Source of the DNA: Octopus sinensis
Lineage: Eukaryota
Reading direction: 5' to 3'
NCBI RefSeq assembly: GCF_006345805.1
Contig: NW_021827041.1
Span: 1 to 11,844, forward strand
Length of the DNA stretch: 11,844 nucleotides
The translations under genes were made by a program, and so were the position numbers. Positions 525-11,844 of this stretch are shown piece after piece. The first letter of the stretch is position 1. Each line of letters begins with the position of its first letter. Below the pieces are notes generated by a model that saw only the letters and a list, made by a program, of their open reading frames with translations, was not told the DNA's origin and made no database searches.

Positions 525-875
525 TTGCAACAAAATTTTAAAATCCCCTGTGACTCCCTAATTGATGTTCGGAGACCAGACATCATTGTAGTGGATAAAG
601 GGAAAAGGAAACTAAGATCATAGATATTGCCATACCTGGGGATGTACAAAGCGTTAGAAGAGGTGGGAAAATAAAAGTCACTAAAAGACGAAATTGCAAG
701 AATGTGGGAAATAAGGAGATTAACTGTTATTCCCGTAGTTGTAGGGGCACTCAAAGCCCCAACAACCAGGTTCGAGAAATATGTCAGAAAAATTGGAATT
801 GATATGAGGACGGAACATGCTTAAAAAACTGCTCTTTGGGGACAGCCAGGATTTTGAGATTGATGCTTGGTGTTG
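525..875 (+). pseudogene. Decayed C-terminal RLE domain of an R4/Dong-like non-LTR retrotransposon
   Basis: Translation across frameshifts and stops: QNFKIPCDSLIDVRRPDIIVVDK / KIIDIAIPGD / KSLKDEIARMWEIRRLTVIPVVVGAL / KTAL-GTARILRLML. The RPD...D catalytic pattern and the terminal 'PVVVGAL' and 'GTARILR' motifs are typical of RLE elements. Confidence 0.85.
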
Positions 876-1173
876 AGTATATTCCAAGATACTTAACACC
901 TTGGCACCAAATCTTATAATTCGTGGAAAGAAAGCCTGTGAAACCTTTGTTTAGCAATAAAACAAAGTGTCTGTCTTCAGTCATATCAATCTTGTTCGCC
1001 ATAGAGTCCCTTTCACCATAGCAACGAGACAAATAGAAATGCTTGATCTTTCTCGGACAAACTACAGAGGCAGCACAACGACTCGCACGACTGAATCGGT
1101 AGATAGTGGGATCGAACAACATCAGCGAAATACCATCAATGCCAATATTGCGACTATACGAAGTGGTGCATTT

Positions 1174-2718: not shown

Positions 2719-4298
2719 TATTTGACTTTTGCTTTGTATTTGTACAAGTTGACTCCAAGTTTCACCCAGAGACCTCAAGAGACAACAAGTTGGAAGTTCA
2801 TGTGGGTGTTATGCCTAGGGTGTCATATATTATTGTTCTAGAGAATGTATAAGAAAACATAAGAAAATTATGTTTGTTTTAAAATTTGAGATTACAGAGA
2901 CAGTATTTTACGTAGGATATGGGCAGTTCCCGTGAGCACTATCTTTTGAATTTCTGCCATTTTGGGGTTTCCTGGTGTCTGAGTTAGGTAGGAATCAGCC
3001 CCTTTTGCTATCATTCCTAGGGCACCTATGACAACAAGTATTGTTTTAGCCTTTTGCCAATTTCTCTTTCACGATCTTTATACTTGCTCAGCTTTTGGTA
3101 GGTCTTGACAGATACGTTTATATCGATTGGGACAGTCATATCAATGAGGAGGCATGATTTTTGTCTGATGTCCTTCAATATAATATCTGGCCGATTCGCA
3201 TCTACCTCTGTCAATTTGAACGGTGATGTTCCAGAGGAGTGAGATGTGATAACTTTCAAGCACTGAAGGTGGTTTGTGTTACCACCAGTTTTTATCATGG
3301 GACAGGTCCAGGTTTTTGCAAATTACCCGGTGAATATATTGTGCTGCTCTATCATTCCTGTTGAGATACTCTGTAGACGCTAGAAGACTGCACATGGAGA
3401 CAGCATAATCAATGGTTTCATTTTACTGTTGGCATATACAACATGTTGGGCGGCTGCCGTTCTTTAATATGTTGACCTGGTAGTTCCTTGTAGGTAGGCA
3501 TTGGTCTTGGGCTGCTATGATAAACCCTTTTGGTTCTGATTTTAAGTCAGGAGCCACTAGCCATTGATGGGTAAGGAAGGAGGAAGCACTCCGTCTGTTA
3601 CGACGATGAGGGTTCCGGTTGATCCGAATCAACGGAACAGCCTGCTCGTGAAATTAACGTGTAAGTGGCTGAGCACTCCACAGACACGTGTACCCTTAAC
3701 GTAGTTCTCGGGGATATTCAGCGTGACACAGAGAGTGACAAGGCCGGCCCTTTGAAATACAGGTACAACAGAAACAGGAAGTAAGAGTGAGAGAAAGTTG
3801 TGGTGAAAGAGTACAGCAGGGATCACCACCATCCCTGCCGGAGCCTCGTGGAGCTTTTAGGTGTTTTCGCTCAATAAACACTCACAACGCCCGGTCTGGG
3901 AAAGCACGATCCTATGACCGTGAGTCCGCTGCCCTAACCACTGGGCCATTGCGCCTCCACGCCATTGATGGGTAAGGGCTTGTCAACATCGGTACTATTA
4001 GCTCTTTTGGGGTATTCGCCATTGAGAGGTTTCTCTTGCCATTTATCAGTAAGAACATCTAAGGCAGCACGGGTTTTTCGTACGGGTTTTCATACGCTTA
4101 GCTTTTTCTGTACTTGTTTCCAGTACGTCTAATTCTGGAATTCTGGAATTTGTTGTATTTGGAATTCACTTAGATATTCCTTTGCCTGTTTTGTGACTGA
4201 GTATGATGCTTTCTTGCTTTCATATTTTGAGACAAGTTTTAACATCCAGTCATCAGAGTTTTTCAGGTAGGTGTCTAGGCCAATTGTGGCAATCTTCA
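2719..4298 (-). pseudogene. 5'-truncated, decayed R4/Dong-like non-LTR retrotransposon (post-RT linker, CCHC zinc knuckle, RLE, 3' UTR), interrupted by a SINE
   Basis: Minus-strand translation: MKIATIGLDTYLKNSDDWMLKLV...DKWQEKPLNGEYPKR...[SINE]...THQWLVAPDLKSEPKGFIIAAQDQCLPTRNYQ...TCCICQQ*NETIDYAVSMC (degenerate CCHC)...EYLNRNDR (RHD-like)...ANRPDIILKD...LLIDMTVP...KLSKYKD...GALGMI...EIQKIVLTGTAHILRKILSL* (stop 2892-2894). Several stops and frameshifts; no RT domain in the window. Confidence 0.9.
3577..3960 (-). mobile_element. Near full-length tRNA-derived SINE (384 bp) with a 17-bp TSD
   Basis: Minus strand starts GTGGAGGCGCAATGGCCCAGTGGTTAGGGCAGCGGAC (A box TGGCCCAGTGG; the B box looks damaged). 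Perfect direct repeat GCCATTGATGGGTAAGG at 3560-3576 and 3961-3977. Confidence 0.9.
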
Positions 4299-5280: not shown

Positions 5281-5289
5281 CTTTTATTG

Positions 5290-5376
5290 TCGGTGGTCAA
5301 ACAGAATCGGTGGCGTGTCTCGCAAACAATGTTGCGGTATTTTGTTCAGCTTCTTTGAGCTCCGACTTCAAATTCC
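5290..5376 (+). mobile_element. 5' part of an old SINE copy split by the array insertion
   Basis: cagaatcggtggcgtg...gcggtattttgttc...cttcaaattcc is a diverged version of the array's head; the element resumes at 7828. Confidence 0.65.
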
Positions 5377-7811
5377 TATTTCTTTACTACCCACAAGGGG
5401 CTAGATACAGAGAGGACAAACAAGGACAGACAAACGGCTTAAGTCGATTATATCGACCCCAGTGCGTAACTGGTAGTTATTTAATTAGACCCCGAAAGGA
5501 TGAAAGGCAAAGTCGACCTCGGCGGAATTTGAACTCAGACGTTACGGCAGACGAAATACTTATTTCTTTACTACCCCAAGGGGCTAAACACAGAGAGACA
5601 AACAGGACAGACAAACGGATTAAATCGATTATATCGACCCCAGTGCGTAACTGGTACTTATTTAATCGACCCCGAAAGGATGATAAGGCAAAGTCGACCT
5701 CGGCGGAATTTGAACTCAAGACGTTACGGCAGACGAAATACTTATTTCTTTACTACCCACAAGGGGCTAAACACAGAGAGGACAAACAAGGACAGACAAA
5801 CGCTTCTTAAGTCGATTATATCGACCCCAGTGCGTAACTGGTAGTTATTATTAGACCCCGAAAGGATGAAAGCAAAGTCGACCTCGGCGGAATTTGAACT
5901 CAGGACGTTACGGCAGACGAAATACTTATTTCTTTACTACCCACAAGGGGCTCTAACACAGAGAGGACAAACAAGGACAGACAAACGGCTTAAGTCGATT
6001 ATATCGACCCCAGTGCGTAACTGGTAGTTATTTAATCGACCCCCGAAAGATGAAAGCAAAATCGACCTCGGCGGAATTGAACTCAGAACTAGCGGCAGAC
6101 GAAATACCTATCTTTACTACCCACAAGGGGCTACACACAGAGAGGACAAACAAGGACAGACAAACGGCCTTTAAGTCGATTATATCGACCCCAGTGCGTA
6201 ACTGGTATTATTTAATCGACCCCGAAAGGTGAAAGGCAAAGTCGACCTCCGCGGCGGAATTTGAACTCAGGACGTTTGCAGACGAAATACCTATTTCTTT
6301 ACTACCCACAAGGGGCTAAACACAGAGGGGACAAACAAGGACAGACAAACGGATTAAATCGATTATATCGACCCCAGTGCGTAACTGGTACTTATTTAAT
6401 CGACCCCGAAAGGATGAAAGGCAAAGTCGAACCTCGGCGGAATTTGAACTCAGACGTACGGCAGACGAAATACTTATTTCTTTACTACCCACAAGGGGCT
6501 AAACACAGAGAGGACAAACAAGGACAGACAAACGGCTTAAGTCGATTATATCGACCCCAGTGCGTAACTGGTAGTTATTTATTAGACCCCAAAAGGATGA
6601 AAGGTAGAGTCGACCTCGGCGAAATTTGAACTCAGGACGTTACGGCAGACGAAATACTTATTTCTTTACTACCCACAAGGGGCTAAACACAGAGAGGACA
6701 AACAAGGACAGACAAACGGCTTAAGTCGATTATATCGACCCCAGTGCGTAACTGGTAGTTATTTAATCGACCCCGAAAGGATGAAAGGCAAAGTCGACCT
6801 CGGCGAATTTGAACTCAGAACGTAGCGGCAGACGAAATACCTATTTCTTTACTACAACCCGCACAAGGGGCTACACACAGAGAGGACAACAAGGACAGAC
6901 AACGGCTTAAGTCGATTATATCGACCCCAGTGCTGTAACTGGTACTTATTTAATCGACCCCGAAAGGATGAAAGGCAAAGTCGACCTCGCGAATTTGAAC
7001 TCAGGAAGTTTCGGCAGACGAAATACCTATTTCTTTACTACCCACAAGGGGCTAAACACAGAGGGGACAAACAAGGACAGACAAAAACGGATTAAGTCGA
7101 TTATATCGACCCCAGTTCGTAACTGGTAGTTATTTAATAGACCCCGAAAGGATGAAAGGCAAAGTCGACCCCGCGGCGGAATTTGAACTCAGACGTTACG
7201 GCAGACAAAAATACTTATTTCTTTACTACCCACAAGGGGCTAAACACAGAGAGGACAAACAAGGACAGACAAACGGCTTAAGTCGATTATATCGACCCCA
7301 GTTCGTAACTGGTAGTTATTTAATAGACCCCGAAAGGATGAAAGGCAAAGTCGACCTCGGCGGAATTTGAACTCAGGACGTTACGGCAGACAAAATACTT
7401 ATTTCTTTACTACCCACAAGGGGCTAAACACAGAGAGGACAAACAAGGACAGACAAACGGCTTAAGTCGATTATATCGACCCCAGTTCGTAACTGGTAGT
7501 TATTTAATAGACCCCGAAAGGATGAAAGGCAAAGTCGACCTCGGCGGAATTTGAACTCAGGACGTACGGCAGACAAAATATATTTCTTTACTACCCACAA
7601 GGGGCTAAACACAGAGAGGACAAACAAGGACAGACAAACGCTTAAGTCGATATATCGACCCCAGTTCGAAACTGGTTAGTTATTTAATAGACCCCGAAAG
7701 GATGAAAGGCAAAGTCGACCTCGGCGGAATTTGAACTCAGGACGTTACGGCAGACAAAATACTGCTAAGCATTTCGCCCGGCGTGCTAACGATTCTGCCA
7801 GCTCGACGCCT
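5377..7811 (-). repeat. Tandem array of 13 ~184-bp SINE-body units plus one tRNA-like head (7763-7810)
   Basis: Unit anchor TATTTCTTTACTAC at about 5378, 5561, 5743, 5927, 6109, 6292, 6475, 6659, 6842, 7028, 7216, 7400 and 7581 (spacing 181-188 bp). Minus-strand unit: B-box-like GAGTTCAAATTCC, central GCCTTTCATCCTTTCGGGGTCGAT...TAAGTACCAG (Meta-domain-like, from memory), tail ...GCCCCTTGTGGGTAGTAAAGAAATA. The head GGCGTCGAGCTGGCAGAATCGTTAGCACGCCGGGCGAAATGCTTAGC occurs once in the array. Confidence 0.95.
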
Positions 7812-7953
7812 TCCGGCTTCAAATTCCGCCGAGACCAACTTTTCGTCTCTTAATTATGGTTGTAAAATAAAGTACGAAACAAGTACTGGGAACAATGTAA
7901 TCAACAACACCCCTCCCCTCAAAACTATTGGCCTTAATTAGAAACTATAATTA
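7812..7953 (+). mobile_element. 3' part of the old SINE copy split by the array (includes the right TSD copy)
   Basis: cttcaaattccgccgagaccaacttt...aagtactgggaacaatgtaatcaac...cccctcccctcaaaactattggcctta continues the element begun at 5290. Confidence 0.65.
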
Positions 7954-7964
7954 AAGCAGAATAA

Positions 7965-8107
7965 GGTGGGTGAGCGAGCAGAATTGTTAGCAAGCCGGAC
8001 AAAATGTTTAGCAGCATTTCGTCCGGCTTCACTTTCTGAGTTCTAATTCCACTGGGGTCGACTTTGCCTTTCATCCCCTCGGGGTCGATGGATTAAGTAC
8101 CAGTGAG
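7965..8107 (+). mobile_element. SINE copy with head and central domain but no tail (array-related family)
   Basis: gcagaattgttagcaagccggacaaaatgtttagcagcatttcgtc...ctgagttctaattcc...gtcgactttgcctttcatcccctcggggtcgatggattaagtaccag matches the reverse complement of the array head plus unit. Confidence 0.85.
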
Positions 8108-9500: not shown

Positions 9501-9575
9501 TATATATAATGAAAAATGTATATTATGTACTTTATTTACATTTGACAAATATTTGTCCTCACCTTGTTTGTTGTT

Positions 9576-9635
9576 AACACAACGTTTCGGCTGAAAACTT
9601 CTGTCCTTTAAACCTTCCACCCTTCACCAGGTGTC
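9576..9635 (-). ncRNA. Hammerhead-like motif, left arm of the foldback (core variant CUGGUGA)
   Basis: GACAC-CUGGUGA-A-GGGUGGAA...UUUCAGCC-GAAA-CG-UU-GUGUU. Stem I GACAC/GUGUU, imperfect stem II with a long loop, palindromic AACGUU. Confidence 0.5.
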
Positions 9636-9719
9636 TTGGAGAATATTTCGAACCTGGGTTCTCGTTCAACATCGAAAAATACCTTAGGAATGAGAACCCA
9701 GGTTCGAAATTTTCCCCAA

Positions 9720-9778
9720 GACACTGGTGAAGGGTGGAAGGTTTAAAGGACAGAAGTTTTCAGCCGAAACGTTGTGTT
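9720..9778 (+). ncRNA. Hammerhead-like motif, right arm of the foldback (core variant CUGGUGA, one C missing in stem I)
   Basis: GACA-CUGGUGA-A-GGGUGGAA...UUUCAGCC-GAAA-CG-UU-GUGUU. Confidence 0.45.
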
Positions 9779-9857
9779 AACAACAAACAAGGTGAGGACA
9801 AATATCCGTCAAATGTAAATAATGAAATATAATATACAATTTTCATTATATATATAT

Positions 9858-11511: not shown

Positions 11512-11714
11512 ATACTCTTTTCTACTCTAGGCACAAGGACCGAAAGTTTGGGGGCGGGGGAGCAGTCGATTAGATCGACCCCAGTACGCAACTGGTACTT
11601 AATTTATTGACCCCGAAAGGATGAAAGTTAAAGTCGATCTCGACGGAATTTGAACTCAGAACGTAAAGGCAGACGAAATACGGCCACGCATTTCGCCCAA
11701 CGTGCTAACGTTTC
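11512..11714 (-). mobile_element. SINE copy, array-related family, tail type A
   Basis: Same head and central domain as the array (gaccccgaaaggatgaaag...ggaatttgaactcagaacgt...gcatttcgccc..cgtgctaacg) but a different tail (tactcttttctactctaggcacaaggaccgaaagtttggggg). Confidence 0.9.
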
Positions 11715-11844
11715 TTATTTCTTTACTGCCCACAAGGGGCGAAACATGGAGGGGACAAACAAGGATAGGCAAAGGGATTTAGTCGATAACATCGTCCCCA
11801 ATGCGTGACTGGTACTTAATTTATCGACCCCGAAAGGATGAAAG
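11715..11844 (-). mobile_element. SINE copy with the array-type tail (type B), running off the window end
   Basis: tatttctttactgcccacaagggg...ggacaaacaagga...gtcgat...actggtactt...gaccccgaaaggatgaaag matches the array unit. Confidence 0.9.

Follow-up and report, generated by a model that had tools for sequence, protein, structure and literature searches.

Among described systems, the closest precedent for the elements reported here is that of the crocodilian SINEU families and the Tx1-Mar LINEs, in which SINE and LINE share a target in Mariner (Kojima 2015, PMC4494074). As in the octopus pair, the SINE has its target preference in common with the LINE, there of the Tx1 clade, and follows it less strictly, and there are two fixed target sites, a 16-bp target-site duplication (TSD) and tandem copies that arise by sequential insertion (PMC4494074). 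The crocodilian target, however, is a Mariner DNA transposon, and tandem copies there sandwich a visible TSD (PMC4494074), whereas in octopus the target appears to be the SINE's own head, rebuilt at each insertion, with the head hidden and about 24,000 joints in the genome. Of the hallmarks of SINEU – a head derived from snRNA and a Mariner target – neither is found: an Rfam search gave no snRNA match in the array, and the SINE itself serves as target.

Further target-specific LINEs of the Tx1 clade include Tx1L in Tx1D, Keno in U2, and Kibi and Koshi in microsatellites (PMC4494074). They resemble the octopus LINE described below in having an ORF2 with APE, RT and zinc-finger domains, an ORF1 with a CCHC motif and one fixed site in a multicopy host; the octopus LINE differs in that its host is its own dependent SINE, and its clade is assigned from domains rather than from an RT tree. 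Dewa, which we take to be a Tx1-clade LINE residing in tRNA arrays, belongs to the same comparison. A more distant parallel is R2, which is co-transcribed with 28S rRNA (cited in PMC4494074). R2 is distinguished from the octopus LINE by its restriction-like endonuclease, its ribozyme and its rDNA target. In R2, an RNA that carries homology to the flanks likely allows the 5′ end to be joined precisely and without a seam, target sequence upstream being replaced.

Tandem SINE arrays have been described as SINE-derived satellites in squamates (Vassetzky 2023, PMC10702118) and as tandem SINEs in bivalves (PMC11481361), and were ascribed to unequal recombination or chance re-insertion. They too have units shorter than the SINE, leading and trailing monomers and greater uniformity in longer arrays (PMC10702118, PMC11481361), but the octopus arrays differ from them in being seeded by site-specific insertion at one fixed register. 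Metazoan non-LTR retrozymes, to which the earlier note on this locus had likened the array, form tandem units of 170–400 nt (PMC11722881); the likeness holds for unit size and fails for the hammerhead that the class requires, the octopus array having instead a Pol III-type head, a LINE-like tail and TSDs. L1-Tx1 families figure in a recent annotation of octopus repeats, the main text of which says nothing on targets or nesting (PMC13282606), and neither SINEBase nor two supplements of PMC4824008 gave a family name for the SINE. Neither a self-targeting SINE nor a SINE-targeting LINE in octopus was found in literature searches, although Repbase and Dfam entries and subscription papers (Ohshima and Okada 1994; Kojima and Fujiwara 2004) may name the families. 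What appears to be new here is a target-specific partnership of LINE and SINE in which the SINE is its own target. We are fairly confident that the array analysed below formed in this way: a SINE inserting repeatedly into its own family at column 48/49, likely by means of the enzyme of an L1/Tx1-like LINE, with later lengthening likely due to local duplication.

The window, that is, the whole 11,844-nt stretch of Octopus sinensis DNA analysed here, contains a tandem array for which TRF gave a 184-bp period and 13.0 copies at 5370–7763. Splitting of the array yielded 13 headless SINE bodies of 181–188 bp each (Table 1), which begin at 5377, 5561, 5743, 5927, 6109, 6292, 6475, 6659, 6842, 7028, 7216, 7400 and 7581. 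All 12 joints are without a spacer – that at 7580/7581 is short of two bases – and each links column 232 of the family to column 49, columns being numbered on the natural 232-bp monomer. The A-box-like motif occurs at one place only in the array and 11 of the 13 bodies carry an exact B-box motif, both judged against consensus sequences that we take to be the usual ones. This layout, confirmed by TRF, splitting and motif placement, is the one that the earlier note had read from the letters: 13 headless bodies and one A-box head with no spacer between units. Its further statement that no ribozyme is visible in the unit agrees with an Rfam search (E<=1) and with the absence of the hammerhead core motif from both strands. 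In having 11 middle units of ~184 of the SINE's 232 bp, the array resembles SINE-derived satellites (sSats), for which at least four shorter middle units are required.

Table 1. Coordinates of the array, its flanks and a second fixed joint in the window.
Feature	Position	Strand	Basis
5′ half of older, diverged copy of the array's SINE, columns 2–86	5289..5376	+	beats 500/500 shuffles
TSD copy 1, 16 bp, B-box region of host SINE	5361..5376	+	16-mer comparison
13 headless SINE bodies, columns 49–232, 12 tail-to-column-49 joints	5377..7763	-	TRF and splitting
Four-unit block, units 2–5, copy 1	5561..6291	-	0–2 differences to units 6–9 at 13 informative columns
Four-unit block, units 6–9, copy 2	6292..7027	-	comparison with units 2–5
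Units 10–13, two further shared variants, each with a T4–T5 run on the SINE strand	7028..7763	-	unit comparison
B-box-like motif of head-proximal body	7727..7738	-	motif match
Single SINE head, columns 1–48, 48 bp	7764..7811	-	splitting
A-box-like motif, one place only in array	7790..7800	-	motif match
TSD copy 2, one mismatch to copy 1	7812..7827	+	16-mer comparison
3′ half of interrupted host SINE, columns 87–161	7828..7900	+	beats 500/500 shuffles
Older-family SINE copy, shared head and core, different tail, from column 16	11521..11715	-	family comparison
3′ part of array-family SINE joined to column 16 of older copy; cut by window end	11716..11844	-	second fixed target site

ARAGORN found no tRNA in the unit; the element's box-like motifs, together with its dispersed high copy number, its TSDs and its LINE-like 3′ end, characterise it as a probable tRNA-type SINE. 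Its head has a putative likeness to tRNA-Ala, and the element may resemble MetaSINEs, which have a 66-bp Meta domain after the head. Structure prediction gives the SINE head a long hairpin, and the position of the joint coincides with the 3′ edge of its loop; head and body together fold no better than shuffles (z -1.3). Cleavage in an anticodon loop followed by circularisation, suggested by this position, was considered and dropped once a LINE had been found at the same base.

The 16-mers that bound the array have no other site within two mismatches on the plus strand of the window, and they constitute a true duplication because the SINE family carries that 16-mer only once. On either side of them lie the two halves of an old plus-strand SINE; the founder of the array therefore inserted, in antisense orientation, into the B box of this old relative. 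The 16-bp, one-mismatch TSD reported in the earlier note is therefore confirmed as duplicating the B box of an older copy on the opposite strand, and the real duplication, with the host SINE split at it, supports the single founding retrotransposition that the note had placed behind it. As the joint is remade at a fixed target site, however, the outer TSD marks only the first of several events. The assembly holds no allelic copy that would represent the empty site. TSDs were found in 58 of 96 SINE elements, 39 of the 58 being 14–18 bp long with a mode of 16. Targets outside SINEs preferentially start with GGTATT-, TATA- or AG-type sequence, present in both TSD copies; here, TSD copy 1 read on the minus strand begins GGAATTT, six of seven letters as in the preferred GGTATTT target. 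The antisense B box is not the only such site: insertions of the young SINE were also met repeatedly at an antisense position of the SINE core, with a GGTACTT start (L174, L190, L390, L392). Another older copy of the head and core of the array's SINE, also opposite in orientation to the array, lies at 7955–8105 (+) of the window.

Exact 25-mer searches of the whole genome gave 24,463 copies of the joint, 25,787 of the intact head and 51,559 of the tail, with none for the reversed controls. Placement of the tails agrees with these counts (16 at column 49 among the first 30 tail matches listed, one false match removed): roughly half of the family's insertions lie inside existing SINE copies. For a second fixed joint, at column 16, the count was 2,365 exact copies, one of them in the window at 11716. 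An older SINE family, with head and core in common with the young one and a different tail (8,050 exact tails), also takes part: of 68 chains that carry its exact tail – the first 70 listed places of that tail, with L119 left out – 24 have at least one young unit upstream. The SINE loci fetched by joint, head or tail all come from one contig (C1), mostly from its first 45 Mb. The earlier note's supposition that the joint arose once is not borne out, given the number of exact copies and the young units joined to older bodies of another family; nor is the joint unique to this locus, which the note had named as favouring purely local expansion. Duplication at the DNA level as the sole source of joint and array is extremely improbable: it would explain the length, the family-rare shared variants and the duplicated four-unit block described below, but it cannot give a base-exact joint at about 24,000 places, young-to-old chimeras or a LINE at the same base. 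It is refuted for the joint and stands for late expansion.

Two further observations concern the head. Arrays of the head alone (columns 1–64), with a period of 65–67 bp and up to 11 pattern matches, precede a full SINE at several loci (L094–L102, L109–L113; G000:C3430:1371-2203), some of them bounded by a TSD of their own. A G/C head variant at columns 44/49 is more frequent among uninvaded monomers (22 of 64) than among first units of arrays (25 of 120), yet C and G targets of the young LINE are equal in number (10/10); the pattern possibly reflects a shift in target use.

The LINE in question is ~5.35 kb long and was first noticed at a locus where a LINE end carries the SINE's tail. Its 3′ end is 82% like SINE columns 198–231, and a similar small hairpin is predicted in both. 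It is joined at SINE column 49 in all 30 best matches, and likewise in 30 of 30 copies picked by the tail alone (26 by strict pattern and four at diverged sites); genome-wide, 146 tails and 141 matches to tail plus target were counted, with patterns differing by four bases. All 20 copies that were extended upstream are full length, have SINE columns 1–64 upstream and sit between two copies of SINE columns 49–64 – a 16-bp duplication – with base 49 identical on both sides. Across 19 copies, the 5′ ends of the LINE are 99.6% alike, compared with 86.5% for the SINE heads and 88.3% for the downstream bodies, and these more diverged SINE parts are therefore hosts, not cargo. With 30/30 and 20/20, the target specificity of the LINE lies above the criterion given in PMC4494074 (>20% of flanks). 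The SINE is less site-specific, about half of its tails lying elsewhere.

Several LINE copies have both reading frames open. Pfam searches assigned APE, RT and zf-RVT domains to ORF2 (1134 aa), and ORF1 (520 aa) bears a CCHC knuckle; the best solved relative is human L1 ORF2p (E 2e-64), and a named homologue of the LINE, from Argonauta hians, matches at 62% over part. Judged from its domains and relatives, not from an RT tree, the LINE is provisionally called L1/Tx1-like. Its copies differ pairwise by 0.34%, as against about 4% for the SINE burst; because the LINE is the younger, an older relative of it must have done most of the SINE insertion. A comparison of its lineages with target base 49 gave p=0.053, on five informative columns only.

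Other elements share this kind of 3′ end. A young 1.75-kb element with ORF1 only (L331–L360; e.g. G000:C6:70547416-70558472) has the same kind of tail, forms tandem arrays and contains a 487-aa open frame that is 30% identical to ORF1 of the LINE; among 53 of its tails inspected, 44 are attached to the 5′ end of the element itself, the start of which often resembles SINE column 16, and six to SINE column 16. At L216 and L258, an element that we take from its motifs to be Penelope-like ends in sequence resembling the SINE tail, inside (TATC)n.

The units within an array differ in age. Where arrays end in the old tail (29 arrays), divergence is 8.5% for the last body, close to the value for old monomers (9.2%, n=44), and 4.1% for the first, close to that for young monomers (3.6%, n=66). 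In a set of 74 arrays, first bodies proved younger than last ones (Wilcoxon p=3e-7). When the older tail ends an array, the outer TSD, judged by eye, follows that tail. Intermediates are also visible: a pattern of old head, duplication and complete new SINE has 60 matches, and among the 30 examined, both copies of the duplication have shared variants in L103, L108, L114, L115, L118 and L120, head-duplicated variants being among the remainder. Age order and visible nested copies together indicate that young copies inserted into older ones at column 49. Where an incoming copy has retained its head, a 16-bp duplication can be seen at the joint, a class that is rare (60, against 24,463 joints).

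It is, by comparison, very unlikely that the whole concatemer stems from one reverse transcription, through template jumping or from a circular or processed headless RNA. A single TSD around the array, near-identical units in long arrays and the complementarity of the tail's last bases to columns 51–56, which could bring the RNA ends together, would agree with such an origin; yet last units often belong to the older family, with twice the divergence, nested insertions with TSDs are visible, the LINE uses the same joint without having a SINE body, and neither Rfam nor the hammerhead core motif revealed a ribozyme. The earlier note's derivation of the joint from template jumping or from circular RNA is accordingly not supported, and template jumping or circular RNA is largely refuted as the main route.

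With stepwise insertion at column 49, the fate of the invaded head has to be accounted for. Heads of invaded old copies are 8.7% diverged, between 6.1% and 12.1%, and 6 of 29 carry a young-only head base; this intermediate age suggests that the head is often replaced in invaded copies. Over 74 arrays, head divergence correlates with that of the last unit (rho 0.25, p=0.03) and not with that of the first body (0.10, p=0.37). In columns 50–66, first and last units share private variants in 3 of 26 and 4 of 18 cases, against 0.02 and 0.06 in controls, one run of the hidden-TSD test having included loci selected for visible TSDs. The prediction that the first unit always keeps columns 50–65 of the target was thus only weakly borne out, and the data fit crossover points in 5′ joining that are variable rather than fixed.

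Long arrays have grown in another way as well. Unit-to-unit distance is 0.099 in 59 two-unit, 0.081 in 14 three-unit and 0.113 in six four-unit arrays, compared with 0.107 between loci, and falls to 0.048 in the seven arrays of at least five units, all seven of which contain near-identical units. In the array described here, mean unit distance is 0.043, with several unit types persisting. Its units share variants that are rare in the family – 171G, for example, is found in 9 of 13 units here and in two of about 380 elsewhere. Units 9 to 6 differ from units 5 to 2 by 1, 0, 0 and 2 positions, matching a dip at lag 4 in the unit distances (3.1, versus 4.8–6.0), and units 11–13 are identical at informative columns. 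The private variants and the duplicated four-unit block bear out the later amplification claimed in the earlier note. Some units are mosaics with family-typical stretches, which is consistent with a few added insertions or conversions. We conclude that insertion seeds arrays and that local duplication likely lengthens the long ones, this array included. Ten of the 59 two-unit arrays and six of the 14 three-unit arrays have distances below the 5th percentile of unrelated copies, so that some short arrays, too, may come from duplication or multimeric RNA.

A related possibility, that the joint arose once or a few times and was spread by master RNAs of two or more units, made by Pol III read-through, is very unlikely. 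It draws on a consensus-like body without a T4 run, on close units in some short arrays and on head-duplicated variants that moved with TSDs of their own (L094, L100). In addition, young-type columns 62–64 occur in 9 of 35 last units of the older family, compared with 1 of 45 controls (p=0.002), a hint at RNAs extending beyond the tail. Such masters do not, however, explain why downstream bodies belong to several families and ages or why most arrays of two to four units are as divergent as unrelated copies. Moreover, a private 23-mer of the array, present four times here, recurs at only four other places, none in an array of like units, and the T4–T5 runs in the head-proximal units 10–13 would likely stop Pol III, so that this locus is predicted probably not to be a source.

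The number of units comes from the assembly alone, and an assembly artefact contributing to the length of 13 units is highly improbable. The array stands on a small, unplaced 11.8-kb contig and shows 43 singleton indel columns alongside 25 singleton substitutions. A read search with the right flank was swamped by SINE heads and gave no spanning piece, 7852–7859 being without cover, and left-flank read contigs end within about 30 bases of the TSD. Against an artefact, the left flank is single-copy and was recovered in one piece in three of four runs with 0–1 differing letters (two of the runs may be the assembly's source), the structured pattern of substitutions is unlike random read error, and other arrays, of 7–10 units, occur on a 213-Mb contig.

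Stepwise self-insertion could proceed as follows. SINE RNA would first be inserted by target-primed reverse transcription at a GGTATT-like site, provided at this locus by an old SINE's B box in antisense, and the outer TSD would result. The LINE endonuclease would then nick the new SINE copy at column 49 and again about 16 bp further on. Homology between the arriving SINE cDNA and the head of the target (columns 1–64) could let the 5′ end of the cDNA join by annealing, to give head, new body and old body: one 184-bp body would be added and the target recreated. Homologous annealing of the 5′ end would explain why the bodies are headless and the second TSD hidden; invoked to account for the intermediate age of the heads, it is the least direct step. 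Once at least two tandem bodies are present, unequal exchange and gene conversion would expand and mix the units.

How the target is chosen is a matter for a more tentative suggestion. Possibly, though doubtfully, target choice is inherited through RNA: a source copy transcribed with a piece of its site would pair through that piece with the next target, and lineages of SINE and LINE alike would in this way be led back to the SINE head, in an RNA-guided loop that reinforces itself. Outside SINEs, a T at tail column 220 goes with 37 GG-type and nine AG-type targets and a C with two and 26 (p=3e-10), and tail column 196 predicts TATA targets (p=1e-4). Among loci not selected by the joint, those with T at column 220 (n=27) include 20 at site 49 and none at site 16, and those with C (n=14) one and six, respectively. 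In the old last units with young-type columns 62–64, target bases downstream have been converted to the type of the incoming copy, while these units stay old-type further on, and 3′ TSD copies lean to the guide by 12 to 3 (p=0.035, some alignments being doubtful). The 16-mer upstream of the LINE often differs from its downstream copy, with recurring variants and more difference than the age of the LINE allows. Pairing of read-through RNA with the target would explain the tail–target link, the converted bases and the 16-mer differences; different LINE partners or epochs, or assembly polishing, are alternatives.

The window contains other repeats in addition to the array. At 2720–4290 (-), between (TTA)n runs, and at 540–900 (+) are broken 3′ portions of LINEs, presumably R4/Dong-like, in which CCHC motifs and motifs of a restriction-like endonuclease can be made out. 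The former is interrupted by a 384-bp insert (3560–3977) with a perfect 17-bp repeat (3560–3576 and 3961–3977), likely another SINE family. An inverted repeat at 9532–9822, with 99-bp arms that are 98% complementary, sits inside a larger inverted pair (9367–9501/10155–10289).

Self-insertion likely explains a large repeat class of this genome, and tandem SINE arrays and 'dimeric subfamilies' are accordingly at risk of misannotation. Where the papers on squamate and bivalve satellites, in the parts drawn on here, leave the link from SINE to array to chance recombination (PMC10702118, PMC11481361), the octopus family offers a testable route from a dispersed SINE to a tandem array of fixed register. 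Its young, intact and site-specific LINE is material for studying target recognition and homologous 5′ joining. The usual relation between the two kinds of element is reversed, in that its own parasite offers the LINE a safe place to land, and the SINE, inheriting the LINE's aim, lands in itself.
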